From the NCBI RefSeq assembly GCF_006345805.1, contig NC_043002.1, positions 90,086,001-90,150,000 on the forward strand: a DNA stretch of 64,000 nt, given 5' to 3'. Below, one piece after another: positions 8,586 through 63,577 of the stretch; position 1 is the stretch's first letter, and the number at the start of each line of letters is the position of its first letter. The notes below the pieces were generated by a model. That model was given only the letters and a program-made list of their open reading frames with translations, did no database searches and was not told where the DNA came from. Source of the stretch: Octopus sinensis (Eukaryota). A program made the position numbers and the translations under genes.

Positions 8586-8832
8586 TGTGCTCCTTACATA
8601 GCAATGTGGACTAACCACTGGGTATATATATTATCATGGCACCAGCATTAGTGAGGTTGCATAGTATCTTGTAAGATGAGCCCCTGTTGTACTACAAGGT
8701 GTTTTTACACTTGAGGCAAATGATGAAGATGGTGGCTAGAAGAGTGACCATGGCAAGAGAAGAACCATAACCTGATGAGCAGTTGGAGGAAGCAGGAGCA
8801 TCATGATAGAGACAGAATAATAGAAGTGAGAG

Positions 8833-9061
8833 CGGCGAGCCAGCAGAAACGTTAGCACATCAGGCAAAATGCGTAACCGTATTTCGTCTGCCGCTACGTT
8901 CTGAGTTCAAATTCCGCCGAGGTCGACTTTGCCTTTCATCCTTTCAGGGTCGATTAAGTAAGTACCAGTTACACACAGGGGTTGATATAATCGACTTAAT
9001 CCATTTGTCTGTCCTTGTTTGTCCCCTCTGTGTGTAGCCCCTTGTGGGCAGTAAAAAAATG
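8833..9061 (+). mobile_element. SINE family B with 19-bp TSD
   Basis: TSD AGAATAATAGAAGTGAGAG at 8814-8832 and 9062-9080. Confidence 0.93.
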
Positions 9062-10391
9062 AGAATAATAGAAGTGAGAGGATGGTAGAAAGGGAGAGTG
9101 ATGGATAGAAATAGAAATGGATAGTGATCAGAATAAGTGAAGTCTGTGTATTTGTGGAGAGAAAAACAGAAGCTCATGTGTATTTGAATGTATGCGTGTC
9201 TGTGTGAGTGTGGCATTCCAATGTGGTGCTTATGCATGAGAAATAAATAGGAATTTTAGAGCTCAGTTAAGCATGTGCACACACACATGCACATACCCAC
9301 ACTTGCAACACACACACACACACAACAGACACACACACACACACATTCACAATGACTCTCACTTCCATATCATGAAATAATATTGTACATTATCTTATAA
9401 TCCTAAACAATTCTTTATTGCATCACATCAGATAATTTTCTGATATATCTATAGTATTCCTTAGGTGAACCTGTTTAAATAAGGGACGTGATCGGAGATC
9501 AGAGACCAAAACAACTGCATTACAGTAGAGTCATGTTAGCTATTAAAAGCACACATGCACTATTATATTCACTATTATCAGTTTGCAGTATTACATAATA
9601 TTTATTATCAAAGTCTTTCATTGAGTCCCAATGACCTTGTTACTGATACTAATAAAATAGAGTACCACTAACCATGCCATAACTGTACGTAGAAATACTT
9701 TGGTATGAAATAAAGTAAATATAACAGTGTGTGTGTGTGCGTGTGTTTGTGTGTGTGTGCATGTGTTTAATGGTTAATATGACTCTATGATGATGCAATT
9801 GTCATCATTATGGTGGTTTTATGGCATACTTTATATCACAGATATATTGAGAAGATCAAAGATGATTTGAGTGTCTGACCGACATAGTTTCCCTTGAATT
9901 ATTGTCTGCACCAAATAGAGCTATTGAGTCTCATTAGCTGTTTGTTTTAAGTATTCTGTCAAAGACTCGGATATTATAATGTGCCAACATTAATATTGTG
10001 AAACTAAAGACTATAAATTCTATCCTTTTGATTTTTCAATTTCGATTTCCTTGGTTTTGAAATCAAAAAAGAAAAAAAAAAGTGAAAAGAGAGAGAGAGA
10101 GAGAGAGAGAGTTGGAGTGAGGGACAAAATTGTTGAAACTCTGACTTGAGTTGTTAATAGCCACAATGGTGAAACATTGTTGTAAAGACAGTGAAGGAAC
10201 AAATTTCTGACATCTTTAAGTTCACCAAAGATAAATTGAGAGGTGGAGCCTCCTCTGTATAGTTATGTGACCTATAAAAAATAGCTGCTAAATTTCCTTG
10301 AAATCACACACTGCTGTTTAAAATAGAAGGATACTTTAGAGAATGTAGAAGTAGCAGTAATAGCATCATCATCAAGATCACCAATAATATC

Positions 10392-11188: not shown

Positions 11189-11461
11189 ATTTATGACAGA
11201 CACTTATTTCATAGATCATGGAGGGCTAAACAACAAACCAGGTTCTAATGAGATTTGAACTCATAACATAACAAGACAAAGTTACTTTTAGACATTTACC
11301 CAAATAGCACATGACAGTTTCTACCTGCCTAAATAATTCTTTTAAATTTTGGCACAAGGCCAGCAATTCTAAAGGGTGCAAGCAAGTTTTAATATTTTTT
11401 TTGTATGCAATTCCTAATAATATTTAATTATAAAAAAATTTAATGGTATTTTTTTAAACAG

Positions 11462-11692
11462 GCAGCAAGCTTGCAGAAACGTTAGCATGCTGGGCGAAAT
11501 GCTTAGCCGTATTTCATCTGCCGTTACGTTCTGAGTCCAAATTCTGCTGAGGTCCACTTTGCCTTTCATCCTTTCGGGGGTCAATAAATTAAGTACCAGT
11601 TATGCACTGGGGTCGATGTAATCGATTTAATCCCTTTGTCTGTCCTTGTTTGTCCCCTCTGTGTTTAGCCCCTTGTGGGTAGTAAAGAAATA
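11462..11692 (+). mobile_element. SINE family B with 17-bp TSD
   Basis: TSD GGTATTTTTTTAAACAG at 11445-11461 and 11693-11709. Confidence 0.93.
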
Positions 11693-22689: not shown

Positions 22690-23500
22690 AACCAGTTGTG
22701 AATTACTTCCACCAGATAAGCAATTGCAAAGTCTTGCCAGTTATGCCACAACACAATACAAGCAGTTGTGAATCAGAGCATTAGATTTGCGGTTATGAAT
22801 TAGAGTCACCAGATAAGCAGTTGTAAATTAATGTCACTACATGAGCAGTTGTGTAATAGTGGTACTAGATGACCAGTTGTGAATTAGTGTCACCAGATGA
22901 GCAGTTGTGTATTAGTGTCACCAGAATATCTATTGTGAATAAGTGTCACCAGATAAACAGTTGTGAATCAGCTTCACCAGCTGAACAGTTGTGAATCAGC
23001 TTCACCAGATGAACAGTTGTGAATCAGCTTCACCAGATGAACAGTTGTGAATTCATCCCACTAGATGAGTAACTGTAAATTAGTGCCACCAGATGAGCAG
23101 TTGTGAATCAATGTCACCAAATGAGCAGTTGCAAATCAGTGTTACTGGATGTGTGGTTGTGAATCAGTGTCACCAGATGAACAACTGTAAATTAATGTCA
23201 CTACATGAGCAGTTGTGTAATAGTGTCACCAGATGAGCAGTTGTGTATTAGTGTCACCAGAAGATCTATTGTAAATAAGTGTCACCAGATGAACAGTTGT
23301 GAACCAGCTTCACCAGATAAACAGTTATGAATTTATCCCACTAGATGAGCAACTGTAAATTAGTGTCACCAGATGAGCAGTTGTGAATCAGTGTTACTGG
23401 ATGAGTGGTTGTGAACCAGTGTCACCAGATAGGCAACTGTAAATTAGTTTCACTGGAGGAGTAGTTGTGAATTAGTGTCACCAGATGAGCAATTACAATT
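22690..23500. repeat. 28-bp minisatellite, ~28 units
   Basis: Consensus GCAGTTGTGAATYAGTGTCACCAGATGA; period seen at 22985, 23013 and 23041. Confidence 0.92.
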
Positions 23501-24199: not shown

Positions 24200-24600
24200 A
24201 ATCCTCCTCCCCCTCGTCCTCCTCCTCCTCCCCCACCCTCCCCCTCGTCGTCGTCATCATCATCATTGTCGTTGTCATCATCATCATCATCATTGTTGTT
24301 GTCGTCATCATTGTCATCTTCATTGAATGTCCATTTTCCATGCTGGCATGGTGGCATGGATTGGACATTTGACAACCTGAGAGCTGCTCAGGCTCCACTT
24401 GTCTGTCTTGGCATGGTTTCATCAGCTGTTACTGTTTCATCAGCTGGATGTCCTTCCTCCTGCCAACCACTTCACAAAGTGTACTGGGTGCTTTTAATAT
24501 GCTACTGGCACAAGTACTTTACACATAGCACCAGCACAAGTGCATCATATGTGTCACTGGCACAAGTGTATTTTATGTAGCACCAGACTAAATGCATTTT
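24200..24600 (-). mobile_element. family D element with expanded trinucleotide tail, grading into the satellite
   Basis: (CCT/CGT/CAT)n, then TTTTCCATGCTGGCATGG...GCTGGATGTCCTTCC...GGGTGCTTTT. Confidence 0.8.
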
Positions 24601-24607
24601 ACGTGCC

Positions 24608-27600
24608 ACCAGCCCAATTGCATTTTATGTGTCCCTGGCACAAGAACATTTTACATGGGACCAGCCCAATTGCATTTTATGTGTCCCTGGCACAAGAACA
24701 TTTTACATGGGACCAGCCCAATTGCATTTTATGTGTCCCTAGCACAAGAACATTTTACATGGGACCAGCCCAATTGCATTTTATGTGTCCCTGGCACAAG
24801 AACATTTTACATGGGACCAGCCCAATTGCATTTTATGTGTCCCTGGCACAACATTTTACATGGGACCAGCCCAATTGCATTTTATGTGTCCCTGGCACAA
24901 GAACATTTTACATGGGACCAGCCCAATTGCATTTTATGTGTCCCTGGCACAAGAACATTTTACATGGGACCAGCCCAATTGCATTTTATGTGTCCCTGGC
25001 ACAAGAACATTTTACATGGGACCAGCCCAATTGCATTTTATGTGTCCCTGGCACAAGAACATTTTACATGGGACCAGCCCAATTGCATTTTATGTGTCCC
25101 TGGCACAAGAACATTTTACATGGGACCAGCCCAATTGCATTTTATGTGTCCCTGGCACAAGAACATTTTACATGGGACCAGCCCAAGTGCATTTTATGTG
25201 TCCCTGGCACAAGAACATTTTACATGGGACCAGCCCAATTGCATTTTATGTGTCCCTGGCACAAGAACATTTTACATGGGACCAGCCCATTGCATTTTAT
25301 GTGTCCCTGGCACAAGAACATTTTACATGGGACCAGCCCAATTGCATTTTATGTGTCCCTGGCACAAGAACATTTTACATGGGACCAGCCCAATTGCATT
25401 TTATGTGTCCCTGGCACAACATTTTACATGGGACCAGCCCAATTGCATTTTATGTGTCCCTGGCACAAGAACATTTTACATGGGACCAGCCCAATTGCAT
25501 TTTATGTGTCCCTGGCACAACATTTTACATGGGACCAGCCCAATTGCATTTTATGTGTCCCTGGCACAAGAACATTTTACATGGGACCAGCCCAATTGCA
25601 TTTTATGTGTCCCTGGCACAACATTTTACATGGGACCAGCCAATTGCATTTTATGTGTCCCTGGCACAAGAACATTTTACATGGGACCAGCCCAATTGCA
25701 TTTTATGTGTCCCTGGCACAAGAACATTTTACATGGGACCAGCCCAATTGCATTTTATGTGTCCCTGGCACAAGAACATTTTACATGGGACCAGCCCAAT
25801 TGCATTTTATGTGTCCCTGGCACAAGAACATTTTACATGGGACCAGCCCAATTGCATTTTATGTGTCCCTGGCACAAGAACATTTTACATGGGACCAGCC
25901 CAAGTGCATTTTATGTGTCCCTGGCACAAGAACATTTTACATGGGACCAGCCCAATTGCATTTTATGTGTCCCTGGCACAAGAACATTTTACATGGGACC
26001 AGCCCAATTGCATTTTATGTGTCCCTGGCACAAGAACATTTTACATGGGACCAGCCAATTGCATTTTATGTGTCCCTGGCACAAGAACATTTTACATGGG
26101 ACCAGCCCAATTGCATTTTATGTGTCCCTGGCACAACATTTTACATGGGACCAGCCCAATTGCATTTTATGTGTCCCTGGCACAAGAACATTTTACATGG
26201 GACCAGCCCAATTGCATTTTATGTGTCCCTGGCACAACATTTTACATGGGACCAGCCCAATTGCATTTTATGTGTCCCTGGCACAAGAACATTTTACATG
26301 GGACCAGCCCAATTGCATTTTATGTGTCCCTGGCACAACATTTTACATGGGACCAGCCCAATTGCATTTTATGTGTCCCTGGCACAAGAACATTTTACAT
26401 GGGACCAGCCCAATTGCATTTTATGTGTCCCTGGCACAACATTTTACATGGGACCAGCCCAATTGCATTTTATGTGTCCCTGGCACAAGAACATTTTACA
26501 TGGGACCAGCCCAATTGCATTTTATGTGTCCCTGGCACAAGAACATTTTACATGGGACCAGCCCAATTGCATTTTATGTGTCCCTGGCACAAGAACATTT
26601 TACATGGGACCAGCCCAATTGCATTTTATGTGTCCCTGGCACAAGAACATTTTACATGGGACCAGCCCAATTGCATTTTATGTGTCCCTGGCACAAGAAC
26701 ATTTTACATGGGACCAGCCCAAGTGCATTTTATGTGTCCCTGGCACAAGAACATTTTACATGGGACCAGCCCAATTGCATTTTATGTGTCCCTGGCACAA
26801 GAACATTTTACATGGGACCAGCCCAATTGCATTTTATGTGTCCCTGGCACAAGAACATTTTACATGGGACCAGCACAAGTGCATTTTATGTGTCCCTGGC
26901 ACAAGAACATTTTACATGGGACCAGCCCAATTGCATTTTATGTGTCCCTGGCACAAGAACATTTTACATGGGACCAGCCCAAGTGCATTTTATGTGTCCC
27001 TGGCACAAGAACATTTTACATGGGACCAGCCCAATTGCATTTTATGTGTCCCTGGCACAAGAACATTTTACATGGGACCAGCCCAATTGCATTTTATGTG
27101 TCCCTGGCACAAGAACATTTTACATGGGACCAGCCCAATTGCATTTTATGTGTCCCTGGCACAAGAACATTTTACATGGGACCAGCCCAATTGCATTTTA
27201 TGTGTCCCTGGCACAAGAACATTTTACATGGGACCAGCCCAATTGCATTTTATGTGTCCCTGGCACAAGAACATTTTACATGGGACCAGCCCAAGTGCAT
27301 TTTATGTGTCCCTGGCACAAGAACATTTTACATGGGACCAGCCCAATTGCATTTTATGTGTCCCTGGCACAAGAACATTTTACATGGGACCAGCCCAATT
27401 GCATTTTATGTGTCCCTGGCACAAGAACATTTTACATGGGACCAGCACAAGTGCATTTTATGTGTCCCTGGCACAAGAACATTTTACATGGGACCAGCCC
27501 AATTGCATTTTATGTGTCCCTGGCACAAGAACATTTTACATGGGACCAGCACAAGTGCATTTTATGTGTCCCTGGCACAAGAACATTTTACATGGGACCA

Positions 27601-27620
27601 GCACAAGTGCATTTTATGTG
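24608..27620. repeat. 52-bp satellite, ~58 near-identical units
   Basis: Unit ACCAGCCCAATTGCATTTTATGTGTCCCTGGCACAAGAACATTTTACATGGG; itself a diverged 26+26 dimer. Confidence 0.98.
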
Positions 27621-27733: not shown

Positions 27734-27963
27734 TATTTCTTTATTACCCACAAGGGGCTAAACACAGAGGGGACAAACAAGGACAGACATAGGTATTAAG
27801 TCGATTACATCGACCCCAGTGCGTAACTGGTACTTAATTTATCGACCCCGAAAGGATGAAAGGCAAAGTCGACCTCGGCAGAATTTGAACTCACAACATA
27901 ACGGCAGACGAAATACCGCTAAGCATTTCGCCCGGCGTGCTAACGTTTCTGCCAGCTCGCCTC
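27734..27963 (-). mobile_element. SINE family B with TSD
   Basis: TSD CAAAC(T)TAATGCATTACC on both sides. Confidence 0.93.
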
Positions 27964-28559
27964 CAAACTAATGCATTACCATTTTCTTAGTGTGTTAGAA
28001 TTTGTTCTGTGACTGAAACTCTTATTATAACCTCAACTTAATAAGACATTTGGTTCTACTAATTTCCGGTCTACTGTGGTCAACAAGTCTGATTTCAATA
28101 TTATCTACAAACAGAATACCTTAACCAATCCAAAACCTTTTGTAAATGTGAAATGTCCAATCAGTGAAGGCATTGCATTGTATGACCATGAGGTCATGAG
28201 GTATTATTTAGTGTTTCATTGTGTTTCAGGGTATTTTACTCTACATTGCTACTTCAGTTCATTTAACTGTAAAACAATTAATATGTAGAGTTACTTGTCA
28301 AAGACTTGAATCATTTTCTTTGGGAAATATTTGTTCTTCAACTGCTATTATGAATGCAGTTCACATGGCATTTTGTGGTTTGTGTAAGATTTTTGAAATT
28401 CTTGTGGTTAGCAAACATCAAAATTTCTTTAATTTCCTTTTCACCATTAAAGACTGCAAATCTTATGAAGCTGATATGATTTTCTCGTTGAAACTTGCAT
28501 TTCATTATAATATACTATGTTAGCCAGATGAACACCACAACTTTTAGTGGAGTACATTT

Positions 28560-40885: not shown

Positions 40886-41189
40886 AAGCATATATTATTT
40901 TAAAATGTATCTGAAAATTGCCATACATCAATGTAACCATATTACAAATGAGAAACTGAGTGTTGTAGATTAGTGAGCTGAATAAGCATGAATTCACTAG
41001 GCACAATAATTGGTATTGATGATAAACTATAGAAAACAAGCCAAAATACCACAGACTGTTTGCACAATTTATGCAAAATTGTTTACAGTGCATCAGTAAA
41101 CAGTGGAAAGGTCACATTACCTCATTGTACTTTTTTCCCTTGTATACCAATGCCTGATGTGTGTCTTACATTATTATTTAATGACTCCT

Positions 41190-42080
41190 TAAGGTGACAA
41201 GCTGGCAGAATCATTAGCATGCTGGGCAAAATGCTTAGCGGTATTTCATCTGCCGTTACCTTCTGAGTTCAAATTCCACCAAGGTCGACTTTGCTTTTCA
41301 TCCTTTCGGGGTCGATAAATTAAGTACCAGTTATGCCCTGGGGGTCGATGTAATTGACTTAATACCTATGACTGTCCTTGTTTGTCCCCTCTATGTTTAG
41401 CCCCTTGTGGTTAATAAAGAAATAGGTATTTCATCTGCCGTTACCTTCTGAGTTCAAATTCCACCAAGGTCAACTTTGCTTTTCATCCTTTCGGGGTTGA
41501 TAAATTAAGTACCAGTTATGCACTGAGGTCGATGTAATCGACTTAATCCCTTTGTTTGTCCTTGTTTGTCCCTTTTATGTTTCACCCCTTGTGGGCAATA
41601 AAGAAATAAGAATCATTAGCACTTCAGGCAAACTGTTTTGTGGCATTTCATGTATCTTAATGTTCTGAGTTCAAATTCCACTGTAGTCAACTTTGTCTTT
41701 CATCCTTTTAGGATTGATAAATTAAGTACCAGTCAAGTATGAATGGTAAAGGCAAAGTTACCTTCTTGAGTCATACTGGCTCATAAGGGCCAGTTTCCTG
41801 GTTTTGTGGCAAATAAATTCCATCTTAGATGGGACACCAGTCCGTCGCAGGATTACTCATTTTCACCAGCTGAGTGGACTGGAGCAATGCGGAAAGAAGT
41901 CTTTTGCACAAGAACGCAGCACATTGACCTGTGCAGGAACTGAAACCACAATCTTTCAATCATGAATCCAACACACTAACCACTATGCCACATGCCTGCA
42001 CTAGTCAAGTACTGGGGTTGATGTTATTGACTACCCTCCTCACTACCAATTCCTAGCCTTGTGCCTATAGTAGAAAGGAT
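41190..42080 (+). mobile_element. SINE B dimer continuing into an alternative-tail B copy
   Basis: 185-bp unit repeated with junction at 41419-41432; older copy from ~41609, split by another SINE. Confidence 0.85.
41740..42002 (-). mobile_element. SINE with E-type head and F-type tail, 9-bp TSD
   Basis: TSD AGTCAAGTA at 41731 and 42003. Confidence 0.75.
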
Positions 42081-42186
42081 TATTTGATGACTCTGTTACA
42101 TTTAAGAAACATTTTTTAAAATTATCTAAATGAAAATTCTCCCAGAAAAACAAAAGGAACATTAAACTTTCATCTATCTGTTAGCA

Positions 42187-42302
42187 AAGGCGATGAGCTG
42201 GCAGAAACGTTAGCATGCCTGGCAAAAGGCTTAGCGTATTTTGTCTGTCTTTACATTCTGAGTTCAAATTCCACCGAGGTTGACTTTGCCTTTCATCCTT
42301 TC
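42187..42302 (+). mobile_element. SINE family B, 5' part
   Basis: Head through GCCTTTCATCCTT, then cut off by a family A copy. Confidence 0.85.
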
Positions 42303-42304
42303 TA

Positions 42305-42482
42305 GGCACAGGAGTGGCTGTGTGGTAAGTAGCTTGCTTACCAACCACATGGTTCTGGGTTCATTCCCACTGTGTGGCACCTTGGGCAAGTCTCTTCTAC
42401 TATAGCCTGAGGCTGACCAAAGCCTTGTGAGTGGATTTGGTAGACAGAAACTGAAAGAAACCCACTGTATATATGTGTATAC

Positions 42483-42553
<71 letters not shown>

Positions 42554-42775
42554 GTATATGTGTATACGTCTGTGTGTATGTGTTTGCCCCCCCCCCCAAC
42601 ATCGCTTGACAACCGTTGGTGGTGTGTTTACATCCATGTAACTTTGCAGTTTGGCAAAAGAGACCGATAGAATAAGTACTGGGCTTCCAAATAATAAGTC
42701 CTGGGGTCGATTTGCTCGACTAATGGCAGTACTCCAGTATGGCCGCAGTCAAGTGACTGAAACAAGTAAAAGAGT
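42305..42775 (+). mobile_element. SINE family A
   Basis: Full length. Confidence 0.92.
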
Positions 42776-42900
42776 ATATGCAATGAGTGGATGACAACAA
42801 CATCCATAGCAGTGATGTGCTAGCCTGGTGGTTGATTGCAGTAACGCAAAACATTATTGCTACAAATGCAAGTTTTACATCCTCTATGACAATTCTCTTG

Positions 42901-43161
42901 TTGTTTGTTTGTTCCTTCTCGAGCCATACCTGGCTCATAAGGGCCGGTTTCCCAGTTTCTTGGCATATAGGTTCTCCACCTGGACGGGATGCCGGTCCAT
43001 CGCAGATGTGCTGCAAGATGCAGGAGGAAAGACTTCTGCCAGAGTCGCGTGGAGCTTAGGTGTTTCGCTCATAAACACACACATCGTCTAGTCTGAGATT
43101 TGAACCCATGGTCCCTCGACCGTGAGTCTGCTGCTCTAACCACTAGGCCATGTGCCTCCAC
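42901..43161 (-). mobile_element. SINE family F with 13-bp TSD
   Basis: TSD GACAATTCTCTTG at 42888 and 43162; homologous to 53289-53583. Confidence 0.88.
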
Positions 43162-43284
43162 GACAATTCTCTTGACCAAAATATACACAACTATACAGAT
43201 GATCTGAAAGAAGAATCAGTTGAAACATGGTCCTTGTATAATGTAGTTTAAGTATGATAAATTTATAGTTTCATACTTTATTCT

Positions 43285-43870
43285 TATTTCTTTATTGCCC
43301 ACAAGGGGCTAAACATAGAGGAGACAAACTAGGACAGACAAAAGGATTAAGTCGATTACATCGACCCCATTGCATAACTGGTACTTAATTTATCGACCCC
43401 GAAAGGATGAAAGGCAAAATCAACCTCGGCGGATTTGAACTCAGAACATAAGGGCAGACGAAATACCTTTTTCTTTACTACCCACAAGAGACTAAACATA
43501 GAGGGGACAAACAAGGACAGAGAAGAGGATTAAGTCGATTACATCGACCCCAGTGCATAACTGGTACTTAATTTATCGACCCCGAAAGGATGAAAGGCAA
43601 AATCGACCTCAGCGGAATTTGAACTCAGAACGTAATGGCAGACGAAATACCTATTTCTTTACCACCCACAAGGGACTAAACATAGAGGGGACAAACAAGG
43701 ACAGAGAAGAGGATTAAGTCGATTACATCGACCCCAGTGCATAACTGGTACTTAATTTATCGACCCCGAAAGGATGAAAGGCAAAATCGACCTCAGCGGA
43801 ATTTGAACTCAGAACGTATACCACTAAGCATTTCGCCCGGCATGCTAACGTTTCTGCCAGCTCACTGCCT
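43285..43870 (-). mobile_element. SINE B trimer
   Basis: One head plus three ~184-bp body/tail units. Confidence 0.92.
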
Positions 43871-44001
43871 GTATTCTAGTATAATGTACACAGCATTGCA
43901 TTTACATACATAGAATCATACATTTTCCTTTACAAAGCTTCTTTAAAATATCCTTCAGTATGTGTATGATGGAACATACTAAATTTGTTTTTTCCACAAA
44001 A

Positions 44002-44210
44002 TCATCATCATCATCATCAACATTTCATGTCCGTTTTCCATGCTGGCATAGGTTGGACTGAAGCTGGTAAGAGCAGGGGTCACAGCGAGCTTTTTTTTTT
44101 GTCAGTTTTGGCATGCTTTCTATGGCTGGATGCCTTTCCTGATGCTAACTACTCCACAAAGTGTACATTGGGTGCTTGTAGCATGATGCCAGCACGGTGT
44201 GGCACCAGCA
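44002..44210 (-). mobile_element. family D 3' fragment
   Basis: (CAT)n, GTCCGTTTTCCATGCTGGCAT, GGCTGGATGCCTTTCC. Confidence 0.8.
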
Positions 44211-44579
44211 TACAGATATACTTGTAAAACGGAAGTGCATCATATGCAAAATGCATCTTATATGCTGGCAAATATGTTAATCTTCAACTATCAATCTGCT
44301 TGTTGGCAAGCATGGAAATAAAAATAAAAATAAATATTTAGATATAAGGTAAGAAATTAGACTTTAAGGGACTGGTTTTAATAAAATGCCACAAACATTC
44401 TGAGGTTTTGTCTCTTCAAATCTGGATTTGTGTTGGAATGTCATAATGTCAGATGCTGCGATGGATTAGACTTGAATCGTAGTTTATAATGGGAAAATAT
44501 GTTGGATTTTTCTTCTAAATAATTCCGTAGAGATTTCTCTGTGGACAATTCAATTTTTCTATTGTATTGCTGTAATGCA

Positions 44580-44928
44580 CGTGAGTGTGTGTGTGCATGT
44601 GTGTGAGAGTATGTGTATGTAATATGAGTGTGTATATGTGTATGTGTGTGTGTATATGTATGTATGCATGTATGTATGTATGTATGTATGTATGTATGTA
44701 TGTATGTATGTATGTATGTATGTATGTATGCATGTATGTATGCATGCATGTATGCATGTATGTATGTATGTATGTATGTATGTATGTATGTATGTATATG
44801 TATGTATGTATGTATGTATGTATGCATGTATGTATGCATGTATGTATGCATGTATGTATGTATGTATGTATGTATGCATGTATGTATGTATGTATGTATG
44901 TATGTATGTATGTATGTGTATGTGTGTG

Positions 44929-44960
<32 letters not shown>

Positions 44961-44990
44961 TGTATGTGTGTGTGCGTGTGTGTGTGTATT
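44580..44990. repeat. (TATG)n microsatellite
   Basis: Direct repeat run. Confidence 0.95.
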
Positions 44991-45169
44991 ATTGTGTCTG
45001 GGGAGAGTCTGTTTTAATGCCTTATTAATTAACACACTCACTGGTTCGATTTCCACTCATTTGCTCAATTATTTTTTCTAAACTTTTCGTTATTTCTTGC
45101 AACCTCTTCAATAGTTGTTGACTCCATCCATTATCAGAGCTACGTTCTTTTTGTTTGTTTATTTGTACG

Positions 45170-45327
45170 CATGTGTATGCGGCAGTGCATGTGTACACAC
45201 ATATGTATGTATGTATGTATGTATGTGTGTATGTGTGTATGTATGTATGTATGTATGTATGTATGTATGTATGTATGTGTGTATGTGTATGTATGTATGT
45301 ATGTATGTATGTATGTATGTATGTATG

Positions 45328-45361
<34 letters not shown>

Positions 45362-46308
45362 TGTGTATGTATGTATGTATATGTATGTATGTATGTGTGT
45401 ATGTGTGTATGTATGCATGTTTGTGTATGCACATATATATATGTATGCATGTGTGTATGTTTGTATGTATTATGTATGTATGTATGTATGTATGTATGTA
45501 TGTGTGTATGTATGTGTGTGTATGTATGTATGTATGTATGTATGTATGTGTGTGTATGTGTGTATGTATGCATGTTTGTGTATGCACATATATATATGTA
45601 TGCATGTGTGTATGTTTGTATGTATTATGTATGTATGTATGTATGTATGTATGTATGTATGTATGTGTATGTATGTATGTATATGTATGTATGTATGTGT
45701 GTATGTGTGTATGTATGCATGTTTGTGTATGCACATATATATATGTATGCATGTGTGTATGTTTGTATGTATGTATGTATGTGTGTATGTATGTGTGTGT
45801 ATGTATGTATGTATGTATGCATGTATGTATGTATGTATGTATGTATGTATGTATGTATGTGTGTATGTATGCATGTTTGTGTATGCACATATATATATGT
45901 ATGCATGTGTGTATGTTTGTATGTATGTATGTATGTATGTGTATGTATGTGTGTGTATGTATGTATGTATGTATGTATGTATGTATGTATGCATGTATGT
46001 ATGCATGTATGTATGTATGTATGTATGTATGTGTGTATGTATGTGTGTGTATGTATGTATGTATGTATGTGTGTATCTATGCATGTTTGTGTATGCACAT
46101 ATATATGTATGTATGTTTGTATGTATGTATTCTGCATGTTTGTGTTTTCCATGTGTGTGTGTATGTGTGTGTGTGTGTACCTTTGTCTCCTTGTGTATGT
46201 GCATATTTGAGTCTGTCTATGTGTATGGATTTGTGTGATTATGCACATTCATCTGTTATGTTTGGATGTGTGTGTGTATTTGTGTGTGTGTGCATGCATG
46301 TGTGTGTG

Positions 46309-46346
<38 letters not shown>

Positions 46347-46440
46347 TGTGTGTGTATATATATAGTTGTATATATATATATATATATATGTATGTCTGTG
46401 GTGTGTGTATATATATTTATCTATACATGTGTATATGCAA
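45170..46440. repeat. compound (TATG)n microsatellite with ~150-bp higher-order blocks
   Basis: Marker GCATGTTTGTGTATGCACATATATAT recurs at 45415, 45570, 45717, 45871 and 46081. Confidence 0.93.
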
Positions 46441-46844
46441 ATCATTTGCTTTTTTTGTAGCTGTTATATTTTCATTTGGAATTAGTTTAAAATCCAGTTT
46501 GGGAATTATTCAATATCTCTTGTGTATTAAAGATATTTTATGTATTTTAAAAAATCAATATGTTTACTGATGTTGTCTGTTTTAAATGTTGGAACGTTTG
46601 AGGTGAACGACAAGTGCAAATGGATTATTTTGCTTGATTAATCTCTCCATTCTTTTTCTGACCTTACCAACCTAACATTACTACAAAAATGATCCAGTTA
46701 GTGGTGGTTGCAGGTCAAAAAGGTTACAGATTTATAATTTTTCAATTTGGTTGCTAGTTCATAGAATTTGAAAAAAAAAAAACAAAAAAAAAACGTATTT
46801 AATCTTTAAGATTTGTTGTTTCTCAGTTGCATAGGTTTGAAATA

Positions 46845-47272
46845 AGGCAGCGAGCTGGTAGAGTCGTTAGTGCACAGGACAAAATACTTTACAGCATTTT
46901 GTCTCTCCTTACGTTCTAAGTTCAAACTCCGCCGAGGTCGACTTGCCTTTCTTTTAAAACAGCGTTGTGAGTGTTTATTGAGCGAAAACACCTAAAAGCT
47001 CCACGAGGCTCCGGCAGGGGATGGTGGTGATCCCTGCTGTACTCTTTCACCACAACTTTCTCTCACTCTTACTTTCTGTTTCTGTTGTACCTGTATTTCA
47101 AGGGGCCGGCCTTGTCACTCTCTGTGTCACGCTGAATATCCCCGAGAACTACATTAAGGGTGCACGTGTCTGTGGAGTGCTCAGCCACTTACACGTTAAT
47201 TTCACGAGCAGGCTCTTCCGTTGATTCGGATCAACCAGAACCCTCATCGTCGTAACGACGGAGTGCTTCCAT
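46845..47272 (+). mobile_element. SINE B head joined to headless SINE C
   Basis: B sequence 46845-46950, C sequence 46960-47272. Confidence 0.8.
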
Positions 47273-47529
47273 CAGGTTTGAAATGTTTCCTGTTCCAATG
47301 TTTCCATTGATTTCACCATTTTGTACCATTCAGAGTGTGCTTTTTCATGGTTCTGTAAAAATCTTAAGTTTAGCTTCATGTATTCTTTGGTGTTCTCTTA
47401 TTTGTTTCTGTCTTTGGACCGTGGCCATGCTGGTGCACCACCTTGAATGTTTTGTACCTTTTATCATCTTGTTGTGCACCTGAGCGTTGTGGTGCACCTG
47501 AGCACTGTATAAAATAATTTCATTATTAT

Positions 47530-48200
47530 TATCTTTTCCTTGTTTCAGTCATGGAAGTGCGGCTATGCTGGGGTACTACTTTGAGGGGTTTAGTTGAACA
47601 AACCAATCCCATAATTCGTTATTTTTTAAGTCAGTCTCTTTTGCCACAATCACTATGTTACGGGGATGTAAATAAACCAACGTCAGATGTCAAACAGTAG
47701 AATGGGTACAGACACACACACACACATCGATATAAACAGCTAGGCACAATGTGATACCATAAAGGAAAACTTCAATCATCACTAAGTGTGACTAAGGGTG
47801 CTGACGCACCTACATTGCTAGAAATAAGAGTTAAAATGCTCTTAATGCTGTAGGAAGAGTGCAGAGACACACATGCAGACAGGGAGGCAACCACCCCATG
47901 CCAATTCGAAGATCCTCAGACTAGACATCTGGTTTTATCTGTTCTGTAGACATTGTCAGTGAGGACTGCTCAAATGGTACATGTTTAACAAATTATACCT
48001 ATCATATGCATGTACACACACACACACATGTGCATACACAATGGGCTTCCTCACCATTTCCATTTATCAAATTCACTCGTAAGGCATTGATTGGCCCAGG
48101 GCTATGACAGAAAACACCCAACGTGCTGCATGGTGGGACTGAACCTGAAACCATGTGGTTGCAAAGCAAACTTCTTAACCACACAGCCATACCTGTACCT
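47530..48200 (-). mobile_element. old SINE family A split by an unrelated insert
   Basis: Tail at 47530-47730, head at 48005-48200. Confidence 0.65.
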
Positions 48201-48589
48201 ATAGTTTAAACCAAACATATCAATCCTCAGTACTTAGATAATTATTTCATTAATCTCTGTTGAATGGATAAGTCTTCCTTAGCAAAAAGAAATGTTACTA
48301 GTACAGAATTAATGCACAAAATGTTTTTTGTTTGATGCACTGGTGTAAGTATACTGTTCTTCAAGTGATCACAACCAAGATGTACTCCAGCATGGTATAC
48401 CAAAAATCACTATCTTCTATTAGCTTTGGTATGTCCTCAGTTTCTCATTGTGTGTCACTGCCAATTATTATAAAAAGTGTATATTATATACACTTTTTAT
48501 ATATGAGGATATGTAGTCTATTGACTTTTATATAGCATGCTAGCCATGGTATGAAATTTTTCTAAATTTTCTACCCTTTTAATTTTCAC

Positions 48590-48638
<49 letters not shown>

Positions 48639-48709
48639 TATTTGTAAGTTAACCAGGCTAGCATTGGTTTCATGTTAAGAGATATCTCTCTTAACAATTA
48701 TCCAGATTG

Positions 48710-48893
48710 TTACATGTTGGTTTGCTTACATGCCTGTAACTTAGTGGTTCACCAAAAGAGAATGATAGAATAAGTGCCAGACATAAAAAAGGAAAAAAAA
48801 AAATATTAGAGGGTATTTATTGAACTAAAGCCTTTGAGGCAGTGCTCCAGTATGGCTGCAGTCCAATGTTTAAAACAAGTAAAATATAAAAGA
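48710..48893 (+). mobile_element. SINE family A, 3' fragment
   Basis: GTAACTTAG...GATAGAATAAG...AAACAAGTAAAA. Confidence 0.75.
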
Positions 48894-49194
48894 GAAATCA
48901 GTTATCTCCTGTCACCACCCCACCCCCACCCAAGCCTGCAGGCGCTATAAAAAATAAGTGTAAAACAGTAAAATAACAAAAATGTTGTTAGCAGATTCAA
49001 ATTTTCTAGCATTGATCTTCAGAATTACAGTGATTTGGTAATTTATCCAAAATTCTATCAAAAGGGTTTTGGGTAAATTGTTGGAATCATTAGTCTGTCA
49101 GACAGAACACTTTGTGGGAGTTAGTCATGATGTTCTGAGTTTATTTATACCAAAATCAACTTAGCTTTTAATCCTTCCAGAGTAGAAAGAATAA

Positions 49195-50490
49195 AGGGCT
49201 GTGACTACAGTGATATTGTATCCATAGAAAGTCTGGACTATAGTGGTTGTTTATACAGTGAGGCTGTCAGTGTAGTGACACTGTGATTGTAGTAATACTG
49301 TGAATGTAGTAAGGCAGCGAGCTGGCAGAAACGTTAGCACACCAGGTGAAATGCTTAGCGGTATTTCGGCTGTCTTTACGTTCTGAGTTCAAATTCCACC
49401 AAGGTCAACTTTGCCTTTCATCCTTTCAGGGTTGATTAAATAAGTACCAGTTACGCACTGGGGTCGCTATAATCGACTTAATCCTTTTGTCTGTCCTTGT
49501 TTGTCCTCTCTGCGTTTAGCTCCTTGTGGGTAGTAAAGAAATAGGTATTTCGTCTGTCTTTATGTTCTGAGTTCAAATTCTACCAAGGTCAACTTTGCCT
49601 TTCATCCTTTCAGGGTTGATTAAATAAGTACCAGTTACGCACTGGGGTCGATATAATCGACTTAATCTGTTTGTCCTCTCTGTGTTTAGCCCCTTGTGGG
49701 TAGTAAAGAAATAGGTATTTCGTTTGTCTTTATGTTTCAAGTTCAAATTCCACCAAGGTCAACTTTGCCTTTTATCCTTTCAAGGTCAATAAATAAAATA
49801 CCAGTTGCATACTGGAGTCAATGTAATCGACTGGCCCTCTCTTCCCAAATTTCGGGCTTTGTGCCTAGAGTAGAAGAAATTCTATAACAATCTTTAAAGG
49901 CGGCAAGATGGCCGATACATTAACACAATGGACGAAATGCTAAGCGGTATTTCGTCTGTCTTTATATTCTGAGTTCAAATTCCGCCAAGGTCAACTTTGC
50001 TTTTCATCCTTTTGGGGTGGATAAATTAAGTACCAGTTGCATGCTGGGGTCAATCTAATCGACTGCCCCTCCCAAAAAAATTTCGGGTTTTGTGCCTTGA
50101 GGAGAAAAGAATACTGTGAATGTAGTAATGTTGTGACAGTAGTGCACCTGTGACTAGTAATGCTGTGACTGTAATAAAGCTGTGACTAGTAAGGCTGTGA
50201 TTGTATTAAACTGTGATTGTAGTGAGGCTATGACTGTAGCAATGTTGTGACTGGAAATGCTGTGATTGTTTTGGGGCTGTGACTAGTTAAACTGTGACTG
50301 CAGTGTTTGCATACAATGAGGCTGTGATGATTGAGGTGTGACTACAGTGAGACTGTGACTGTAGCAAGACTGTGACTTCTGATTGTGACTGTAGTAAGGC
50401 TGTGACTTCTGATTGTGACTGCATTAGTCAGTCACTGTTGTGAGTCTGTAAGTGTAATGAGATTACAATAAGGCTGTAATTGTGGTGGCT
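49195..50490. repeat. degenerate ~17-bp minisatellite (GTGACTGTAGTAAGGCT) split by a SINE B array
   Basis: Units at 49195-49312 and 50110-50490. Confidence 0.8.
49313..50109 (+). mobile_element. SINE B composite array (trimer plus an alternative-tail monomer)
   Basis: Junctions at 49538 and 49708; flanked by the 19-bp direct repeat AATACTGTGAATGTAGTAA. Confidence 0.9.
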
Positions 50491-61188: not shown

Positions 61189-62870
61189 TCAAGTCATTAA
61201 GAACGAAATGTTCGATTCTCTTAGACACCAAGTTTGACAGTCATTAATTCTAATTTTATCCTGACAAGTCTTTGTATTACAATATTGAAGCATAACATCA
61301 CTTTTCAAAATACAATTCACGATGTCTAATTATATTGTGAGTTTTCTATTGTAAATTAAGTTTTTTGAACCCATGGATTGATAAAAAAATTCGTGTTGTT
61401 TATGAATATGAGTTCTCTTGCATCCCAGACAGCTCAAAACAGCAATGTGTTTAGTGAAAATGTGGCATATGGGCACACTGTATGTTGATGGTTTGAGAAG
61501 TTCCAGTCTGGTGACTTTATTCTTGAAAATCGGCCCCGTGGTAGACCTGAGACCAAGGTGGATGATGATGAGCTAGAAACTGTAGTGGAAGTGGATACAT
61601 CTCAAACTACACATGAGTTAACAGCAAGGTTCGATGTTTCAATTCCAACTGTATTGGACCATCTGAAACAAATCAGAAAGGTAAAGAAGCTTGACAAGTT
61701 GGTACCAAATGAACTGAACAAGTATCAAATGACACATTGTCTTGGAACTTGCTGTTCTTTGCAGTCACAACATAAAAGTGAACCATTTTTGTATCATATT
61801 GTTATGTGTGATAAAATATGGATTCTTTTCAATAATAGCAATCATTCTGCACAGTGGTTAGATAGAGACGAAGTGCCAAAACACAGTCCAAAAAGGAATA
61901 TTCACCAAAAAATAAGCTAATGGTGTTTGTTTGGTAGTCCAGTGCTGGTGTCACCCACTACAGCTTCATGAGACCTGGTAAGTCAGTTACAGCAGATGTA
62001 TACATCAACCAATTTGGATGGGTGACAATTTCATATGACACCGCTAGAAAAAAACTGCCATTCAAACCGAAAAGATCCCAGAGAGATAACAGGGTTAATG
62101 CCACTACTGGGATGGTGAGAAGGGGTGTCAGAGAGAAACACGGAACACTATGCTAAGAGAAGTAAAGCTAAGTTAGGAGGAATGAAGGACAGAAAGAATG
62201 AGCAGGCAGAGGGATGTGATAATTGGGAAGTTAGCAATTAGCGATGGAGAAACCAAAAGCCAAGAAGGAAAGTTGACAGAATTAAAAAAAATGAAGAAAT
62301 ATGAAGAAAAAATGATGGAAAACGCAGAAAAATGACAAAACGAAACAATGAAGAGATGATGAGAAACTGAGGCAATGTGAAAGGTTTTATGAACGGTTTT
62401 AATAGATTTTAATAGATTACATGAACAGTGAACAGTGAGGAGGCCCTTTGAAATCCTCATTTGAAAATCTCAGTGAGTGAACGTTCAATTAAACAACTGA
62501 TATTGGTCAATAGAGATAGGCCAATTCTCTTGCAAGATAATGCTCGACCATATATTGCACAAAGAATGCTACTCAAGTTACAGGAACTGAACTTGGAAGT
62601 ACTCTGTCATCCACCATATTCAGCAGACCTTGCACCAACAAATTATCACATTATACAGGCATGAGACAACATTTTTCAAGGAGAAAACTTCAAATCTGAA
62701 AACGATGCAGAAACAGTCTTTCATGATTTCATCACCTCTTGTTCTCCAGAATTCTTCACTGCCAGCATAAATAAGCTACTGATAAAATGGCAAAATTGTG
62801 TTGATAATTTAGGTGCATACTTTTATTAACTGTATTGCTTTTTCTTGACATTTCATTCTTAATGATCTGA
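61189..62870 (+). mobile_element. mariner (DD34D class) transposon, decayed, with ~455-bp internal insert
   Basis: TA-flanked TIRs TCAAGTCATTAAGAACGAAATGT / TCAGATCATTAAGAATGAAATGT; peptides KKLDKLVPNEL (WVPHEL-like), FLYHIVMCDKIW and QDNARPY...HPPYSADLAPTNYH. Confidence 0.92.
62018..62473 (-). repeat. inverted copy of 63203-63638
   Basis: Reverse-complement match along the whole length, also visible in ORFs 61968+ and 63416-. Confidence 0.92.
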
Positions 62871-63048: not shown

Positions 63049-63577
63049 GGCTAACTAAAGCGCTGAAGACAAACATGGACATTTAAGACATACTTAGGAA
63101 AATGTTTTGGACAGGCAAAGGATTAAGAGGAAAGTTGTTAAATTAAGGTATTTAAGACCTTTAAAACTTTTGAACTTTTGAAAAATTTAAGAGAGAAACT
63201 TTCTGAGATTTTCAAATGAGGATTTCAAAGGGCCTCCTCACTGTTCATGTAATCAATTAAAATCTATTAAAACTGTTCATAAAACCTTTCACATTGCCTC
63301 AGTTTCTCATCATCTTTTCATTGTTTCGTTTTGTCATTTTTCTGCGTTTTCCATCATTTTTTCTTCATTTTTTAATTCTGTCAACTTTCCTTCTTGGCTT
63401 TTGGTTTCCCCATTGCTAATTGCTAACTTCCCAATTATCACGTCCCTCTGCCTGCTCATTCTTTCTGTCCTTCATTCCTCCTAACTTAGCTTTACTTCTC
63501 TTAGCATAGTGTTCCGTATTTCTCTCTGACACCCCTTCTCGCCATCCTAGTAGCGGCATTACCCTGTTATCTCTCTG

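Follow-up and report, generated by a model that had tools for sequence, protein, structure and literature searches.

The window analysed here is a stretch of 64,000 nucleotides from Octopus sinensis (assembly GCF_006345805.1, contig NC_043002.1, positions 90,086,001 to 90,150,000 of the forward strand), and the element in question is a short interspersed element (SINE) that occurs in it both singly and in tandem arrays with a recurrent junction. About 20 copies of this 231-base repeat family, with a common head and centre and several types of tail, lie in the window; consensus positions refer throughout to a 231-base consensus built from 42 copies. The three arrays described in the initial annotation are present, at 41193-41608 (+, two units), 43285-43869 (-, three units) and 49313-~49880 (+, three units), and are listed below with the related copies on which the argument draws.

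41193..41424, +: array 1, first unit, with head, body, TAAT-type tail and the end GAAATA (by sequence comparison)
41425..41608, +: array 1, second unit, starting with consensus position 48 (GGTATTTC), CAAT tail
41609..41733, +: older copy of the SINE, entry at consensus position 15, second class of junction
43652..43869, -: array 2, head-bearing first unit, positions 53-65 deleted (13 bases), T-type tail
43468..43651, -: array 2, inner unit, starting with position 48, TAGT tail
43285..43467, -: array 2, last unit, starting with position 48, CAAT tail, the presumed resident
49294..49312, +: 19-base direct repeat around array 3 and a monomer, second copy at 50110-50128
49313..49543, +: array 3, head-bearing first unit, TAGT tail
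49544..49713, +: array 3, inner unit, starting with position 48, TAGT tail, 14-base deletion
49714..49880, +: array 3, last unit, from position 48, alternative (AGAGTAG-type) tail, the presumed resident
49899..50109, +: full monomer with alternative tail, 17-18 bases beyond array 3
11461..11692, +: TAGT monomer at a non-SINE target, duplication starting GGTATTT
27734..27964, -: T-type monomer at a non-SINE target, duplication starting GGTAA

The five tail-to-body junctions lie where they had been placed, one of them with a mismatch, against a shuffle expectation of 0.04; a sixth match with one mismatch (11687) is the end of a monomer. The inverted repeat GAAATA-GG-TATTTC is present in the sequence, and the hairpin with a two-base loop that it may form is putative. 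The main tail at 41609 does join an older head, at consensus position 15, and the tail family of the last unit at 49 kb does differ from that of the earlier units. The claim that each locus has private variants held in part: TTACCTTCTG is common to the two 41 kb units and has one further occurrence in the window, and GGCAAAATC is confined within the window to the three 43 kb units, but TTGCTTTTC is found at 8 places and is not private. The second unit of array 1 has variants in common with the first along most of its length and is homogenised or locally duplicated, AGAATCATTAGCA is found at both 41207 and 41609, and the inner unit of array 2 is a near-duplicate of its first unit (6/7 variants in common). 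Since the 19-base repeat at 49294 lies inside a 17-base minisatellite, it is a possible target-site duplication; as it encloses both array 3 and the monomer (49294-50128), the two may have travelled together, or else the array may have entered the monomer's flank.

The family has basic properties of a tRNA-derived SINE: it is short, non-coding and present in high copy number (75,549 and 23,221 exact tails in two subfamilies), and its target-site duplications are of variable length. One 3' fragment of a long interspersed element (LINE), a relative of the partner and a candidate for the partner itself, has a similar tail. In the head, motifs are visible that we take to be A-box-like and B-box-like, and the central block presumably resembles the 66-base Meta domain, which in MetaSINEs comes immediately behind the tRNA-derived head. 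ARAGORN gave no tRNA prediction and Rfam no match for the SINE; a hairpin of the head folds, but with z = -1.6.

The junction is not a peculiarity of the window. In the 2.72-Gb genome the exact junction AAAGAAATAGGTATTTC has 47,988 matches (control 2), and exact intact heads, searched with a 19-base pattern, have 34,189. In an unselected sample of 864 kb, consisting of the window and 80 further stretches, 23 of 64 main tails are joined to another SINE copy, 19 of them at position 48, three at position 15 and one elsewhere. Therefore, the junction is fixed rather than heterogeneous. The main-tail subfamilies, which are distinguished by the letters 11-13 bases before the end, differ strongly in this respect. 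TAGT tails run into GGTATTTC in 28,927 of 75,549 cases (38%) and CAAT tails in 676 of 23,221 (2.9%), the preferred site of the latter subfamily being the second one in the head. Both the fixed position and the subfamily bias are direct observations. Junctions of the second class, into position 15, number 3,718, and among the first 100 of these matches 68 CAAT, 14 CAGT, 12 TAAT and 6 TAGT tails were counted by eye. Most arrays are short, with 82 dimers and four arrays of five or more units among 110. In 67 complete arrays, 96 of the 98 non-last units have T-type tails, while the last units comprise 29 alternative, 13 CAAT, 6 TAGT, 4 TAAT, 2 CAGT, 1 other and 12 truncated ones; the presence of at least five tail types in this position speaks for many independent events. 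A variant of the junction with TA instead of GG, which makes the palindrome perfect, was seen at L270-L272 and L051:3935-4308, and within L270-L272 it has expanded in a five-unit array. At L157, L241 and L261, TAGT copies lie inside resident SINEs of opposite orientation, at L157 at GGTAC on the reverse strand of the resident's central block.

The target-site duplications indicate how the junction comes about. Those of TAGT monomers often start with GGTA or TATA, and in the 53 non-SINE GGTA cases with a clear duplication, the duplication starts 9-32 bases upstream of the head and begins with GG on both sides in 45. A search for a resident head followed by GGTATTTC, 4-26 letters and a new full head gave 110 matches, and the 30 loci fetched represent 22 distinct places. 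At 12 of these, 10-16 letters from GGTATTTC onward are repeated exactly on both sides of a full-length newcomer, and nine of the 12 duplications contain non-consensus letters of the resident; at two more places (L174; L177-L181) the match was judged by eye and includes mismatches or lies further upstream. Duplications beginning precisely at that base and repeating the resident's private letters, both seen directly, mark true insertions into resident copies, and insertion of the SINE into its own kin is thus very probable. The proposal that an endonuclease of the SINE nicks resident copies at GGTA stands as far as the place is concerned; the SINE has no endonuclease of its own, and the enzyme would be that of a LINE.

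The order of the units agrees in age with such insertions. The last main-tail units are more diverged than the first in 31 of 43 arrays (0.051 vs 0.037, p = 0.001), T-tailed last units alone giving p = 0.06, and CpG decay affects 52/294 sites in last main-tail units and 31/298 in first units. Where an array ends in a CAAT or AGAGTAG unit, its outer duplication was recognisable in 15 of 40 cases, with 16 mismatches in 180 letters, as compared with the duplications of T monomers, which were recognised at 10 of 12 letters or better in 70 of 104 cases, with 24 mismatches in 840 letters. The 5' units are therefore younger than the 3' unit and the outer duplications. Contigs of organism E have, at places with a T-type tail plus junction (41411, 41556), a depth of only 0.045 of the body depth, as against 0.77-0.95 in organisms B, C and D, and for that reason the TAGT burst looks lineage-specific. 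At L085, four runs of organism E yielded one orthologous contig; it includes the flank and letters 1-31 of the head and ends inside the head before bridging the array, which lends weak support to a putative earlier resident. Contigs placed on 40900-44000 of the window were swamped by paralogues and bridged no junction.

What leads the TAGT subfamily to this site is a separate question. At non-SINE sites, insertions per available site rise with the length of the match, from 3.4e-4 (GGTA not followed by T) to 1.4e-3 (GGTAT not followed by T) and 2.6e-3 (GGTATT not followed by T); in these rates SINE targets were removed by means of sampled loci (28/30, 24/30 and 22/29), and available sites were counted in unselected DNA. 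The rate is about 0.2 at SINE sites and 4.7e-5 at HATA sites. Eight matching letters are not enough, since 27 of 69 GGTATTTC sites in unselected DNA lie outside SINEs, yet none of 68 exact junctions leads into non-SINE DNA (one apparent case is a SINE with a deletion). Moreover, within the TAGT subfamily the choice of target follows the haplotype of the source: 157A is found in 54 of 78 copies at non-SINE GGTA targets vs 6 of 30 at TATA targets (p = 8e-6), and 125T in 41 of 79 vs 3 of 28 (p = 1e-4), among 61 tests in all, while SINE and non-SINE GGTA targets showed no haplotype difference after correction. The TAGT and CAAT subfamilies have identical last 10 bases and different sites. At non-SINE targets the GG might conceivably be supplied by the RNA; the left copies differ at positions 1-2 in 8 of 53. 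The rise of the rate with the site match, together with a target choice that tracks the source haplotype, points to a guide carried by read-through RNA. A run of T ends transcription by polymerase III, and the consensus has no TTTT, so that the polymerase would be expected to read on past the tail.

The arrays would then be stacks in which the younger TAGT subfamily inserted at position 48 of older kin, steered by read-through RNA, and we consider this full account probable, with moderate confidence. Insertion would likely proceed by target-primed reverse transcription with a borrowed LINE enzyme. A source copy standing in front of a resident would be transcribed beyond its own tail, and its RNA would carry GGUAUUUCGUC..., TAGT RNAs running on into GGUAUUUC. 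Wherever a copy of the site occurs, this extension would pair with the primer strand that has been nicked, and reverse transcription would begin at GAAATA. The complementary DNA (cDNA) of the head would anneal to the homologous head of the resident and replace it, leaving one head, while a small minority would join without homology and keep two. Every new copy would have the same guide downstream, a positive feedback, and unequal crossover and gene conversion would afterwards homogenise and lengthen some arrays. It is possible, and we suggest it tentatively, as somewhat short of an even chance, that the family is a homing SINE with a heritable, self-renewing RNA guide. In that case the transcribed downstream landing site of the source would decide where its offspring land, with the enzyme unchanged; lineages would lock onto position 48, position 15 or TA tracts, and those locked onto their own family would behead older copies, take over loci and seed satellites. 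As a side observation, 17 of 28 TAGT copies at TATA targets have the head variant 43G/48C, which destroys their own GGTATTTC site, and this lineage may be immune to self-targeting.

Several points weigh against steering by read-through RNA or against insertion into residents as the general route. The RNA's own end is complementary to site positions 3-8 as well, and therefore the match gradient does not distinguish a read-through guide from pairing of the tail or a preference of the enzyme. Past the first mismatch, enrichment was seen at position 6 alone (15/28, p = 0.015) and not at positions 7-14. The links between haplotype and target could stem from different enzymes acting at different times, and the read-through guide is derived from genome sequence, the read-through RNA itself being hypothetical. 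Eight of the 22 two-headed places have no matching duplication; two-headed forms are rare (1/48 junction-selected arrays), and the seamless majority is thus explained by inference. The age of the head showed no correlation with that of either unit. No LINE was found upstream at the 23 tail-to-SINE joins in unselected sequence or among the listed headless units. Finally, the junction-selected loci were all drawn from the beginning of contig C1.

Alternatively, the site may be chosen by sequence-specific endonucleases of L1/Tx1-type partner LINEs, a different enzyme serving each subfamily, so that insertion into residents is real but read-through RNA plays no part; pairing of the RNA end GAAAUA with TATTTC on the other strand may help. 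A candidate for such a partner came from a 5'-truncated LINE 3' end at L361 (~8810-9385, duplicated in L362), whose tail aligns to the SINE tail with a score of 44 for CAAT and 36 for TAGT (0 of 2,000 shuffles), a comparison with the caveat that the fragment was found through a tail-like pattern. Over 250 bases it has 71% similarity to a LINE with RVT_1 at L062, whose database relatives have endonuclease, reverse transcriptase and zf-RVT domains. Judged by these predicted domains, the L361/L062 LINE is of L1/Tx1-type build; it is a relative of the partner and a candidate for the partner itself. A LINE of this type with a SINE-like tail keeps the enzyme explanation alive, as do the TA at positions 3-4 in most targets and the fact that Tx1 families target other transposons, as far as the available sections of PMC4494074 describe them. 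In the search for the partner, 28 of 31 long open reading frames were scanned and seven had RVT_1; the shared tail was not seen at the 3' ends of L349 and L344, nor in the viewed stretches of L062 and L327. The L361 end sits in an (ATT)n tract, and the region around it is duplicated ~0.9 Mb away, inverted. That the sole LINE tail found lies in such a tract and not in a SINE tells against this alternative, and so do the non-SINE GGTATTTC sites that exact junctions avoid, the dependence of the target class on haplotype within one subfamily, and the locus L028, at which a new full head entered a tail-made junction with different upstream letters. On balance, specificity of the enzyme is an unlikely explanation.

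The origin of the single head bears on another alternative. The variant 43G/48C is present in 18 of 75 TAGT monomers at GGTA targets vs 3 of 87 alternative-tail monomers, and dimers ending in an alternative tail have it in 8 of 45, which differs from residents (p = 0.008) and not from newcomers (p = 0.5); position 63 of the first unit is without relation to the resident (p = 1.0). The single head is thus mostly that of the newcomer, which mostly supplies head, body and tail while the resident's head is lost, and the suggestion that a new tail is installed behind the old promoter was not borne out. The letters 19 and 36, tried as family-diagnostic marks of head provenance, gave no information, since most seamless arrays have a young family at their end, and its head is identical. 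Headless 5'-truncated units, classed by hand from a list, are scarce at junctions (2/92 vs 17/120 at non-SINE targets, p = 0.003), which supports the homology-assisted 5' joining that the initial annotation had put forward, and in a few junction units (L248, L299, L219) a short piece of tail is joined directly to head letters upstream of the site. By analogy, the 5' joining would fit annealing of cDNA to the upstream head of the resident, as proposed for R2; the outcome would look no different if two tandem heads had collapsed after insertion. Head-only tandem repeats with a period of 65-76 bases and up to 10 listed copies were also seen (L175-L183, L192-L194, C7:15322785, C18:40399004, C3430:1372-2207), and apparently they have grown from two-headed insertions.

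A newcomer-type head and positions 43-63 in first units are equally what chimeras formed before or during one insertion would give, if the reverse transcriptase copied SINE RNA to position 48 and jumped to the 3' end of a TAGT RNA paired there, at the hairpin junction, or copied whole the read-through multimers of multimeric sources. The RNA end is complementary to positions 50-55, and a single duplication surrounds the whole array in 27 of 67 arrays (at L196 one visible duplication encloses three units), in line with such chimeras. They would, however, predict headless truncated arrays at the usual rate and outer duplications as young as the TAGT insertions, whereas the former are rare and the latter look older, and duplications of resident-private letters could not be produced in this way. 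At L085, moreover, organism E, in which the T-type tail plus junction is ~15-20 times rarer, already has head letters 1-31, the array not being bridged. Chimeric origin is accordingly quite improbable, and insertion into the resident is retained.

Local duplication, or else unequal crossover inside a single resident, a class to which the duplicated body with a new tail of the initial annotation belongs, is refuted as the origin of the junction and is very improbable as a general account, since 91 of 104 last pairs have fewer than three common variants, last units are often of other tail families, and neither the single junction, nor the subfamily bias, nor the same GGTA start at non-SINE targets is given a reason, though variants shared above control and in long arrays leave it a place as a secondary, later process. 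The relationships were judged by pairwise sharing of variants. Only 25 of 501 rare variants of last units recur in the preceding unit, which together with position 63 speaks against local duplication of the resident body as a rule, and the pairs with three or more common variants number 13 of 104 among last pairs and 6 of 29 among inner ones (one array possibly counted twice), with a cross-locus control of 0.8%. A model in which the resident body is copied over a long stretch from position 48 was rejected, as it left a weak 5' excess only (6/40 at positions 56-60 vs 3% in the control) and none at 63. Adjacent units are thus mostly independent and not local duplicates. The window, with three or more common variants in four of five adjacent pairs (included in the whole-sample counts), is atypical in comparison with both the last and the inner pairs of the sample. 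In arrays of five or more units 21 of 33 inner pairs reach this level, and the later unequal crossover that had been named as a contributor does act in long arrays; homogenisation is real but secondary and increases with array length. Arrays of 8-11 units with alternating sub-variants, at the satellite-like end of the range, were observed at L109, L083, L112-L121 and L156.

Among known systems, the Zepp LINE of Coccomyxa inserts preferentially into itself. Like the present SINE, Zepp is an element without long terminal repeats (non-LTR) that forms clusters of nested copies, but it is autonomous and has one cluster per chromosome, as far as the available part of PMC3446292 goes. In the available sections on SINEU and Tx1-Mar of crocodilians (PMC4494074, Kojima 2015), 313 of 347 SINEU-3 copies have Mariner-N4_AMi as their flanking sequence. 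The likeness lies in a strong preference for one site inside a repeat, as in the 38% of TAGT tails described above, in tandem copies formed by sequential insertion, and perhaps in a Tx1-type partner sharing the target, to which a candidate LINE with L1/Tx1-type domains may correspond here, with no LINE seen at position 48 in the sample. SINEU differs in that its target is a DNA transposon and not its own family, that a duplication stands between tandem copies, and that specificity is credited to the endonuclease (same sections of PMC4494074). For R2Ol, downstream target sequence in the RNA improves accuracy and efficiency according to the accessible text of PMC6795142, and for R2, upstream 28S homology gives mostly precise 5' joins, some with tandem duplications of the upstream target, in that of PMC3774820. 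The present SINE would resemble R2 in a read-through RNA that anneals to the target and fixes the 3' junction, and in upstream homology leading to a precise 5' junction; R2 is, however, autonomous, with a restriction-like endonuclease and one target in ribosomal DNA, and its flank does not make R2 its own target (PMC6795142, PMC3774820, same portions). The signature of RTE-type elements is a duplication that has TA or A as its start and a T-run some ten bases upstream, beside which stands the GG start of the selected GGTA cases (45/53), and the same source ties the 3' repeat of the RNA to the cut site (PMC13295347, in the portion available).

The SINE-derived satellites of squamates share with these arrays tandem units that are part of a SINE, a longer terminal unit, in some cases coverage of the head end, body and LINE-derived region, and greater homogeneity of longer arrays (available sections of PMC10702118, Vassetzky et al. 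2023). Such satellites are expected to have four or more homogeneous middle units, whereas here only arrays of five or more units (4/110) are homogenised. Moreover, the squamate satellites are subtelomeric and are credited to unequal recombination and concerted evolution, those sections of PMC10702118 reporting no insertion footprint or subfamily bias. In the blood clam Scapharca broughtonii, also a mollusc, arrays of one full head followed by head-truncated units lie within one target-site duplication, but they make up ~3% of copies, their inner units are also tail-truncated, and they are credited to unequal recombination (PMC11481361, available part). The MetaSINE superfamily likewise has a tRNA-like head, a shared central block and exchangeable tails, and self-targeting goes unmentioned in the available text of PMC4824008.

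Elsewhere in the window, a 52-base minisatellite of ~59 copies (24529-27620) is free of stop codons in each of the three forward frames over long stretches, and another minisatellite, with a 28-base unit in 26 copies, lies at 22761-23491. The arms of a 197-base inverted repeat (62093-62289 and 63368-63564), 96% complementary and 1,078 bases apart, likely belong to a DNA transposon.

Target-specific SINEs, flank-guided R2 junctions, SINE-derived tandem arrays and nested Zepp clusters are already known. A SINE with its own head as the main target and with subfamily- and haplotype-specific sites was not found described in the literature, with subscription journals and Repbase outside the coverage. 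Non-LTR elements are usually held to owe their target specificity to the endonuclease; in this family, subfamilies and haplotypes differ in their sites across tens of thousands of loci, and if an inherited RNA flank is the cause, this would be a natural case of RNA-guided retargeting. The annotation and dating of such arrays change as well, the 3' unit being the oldest. If true, the proposed process would open to SINEs a route of competition for one another's loci, and it would be a concrete starting point for SINE dimers and for SINE-derived satellites, which the squamate and bivalve papers, in the sections available, trace to recombination.

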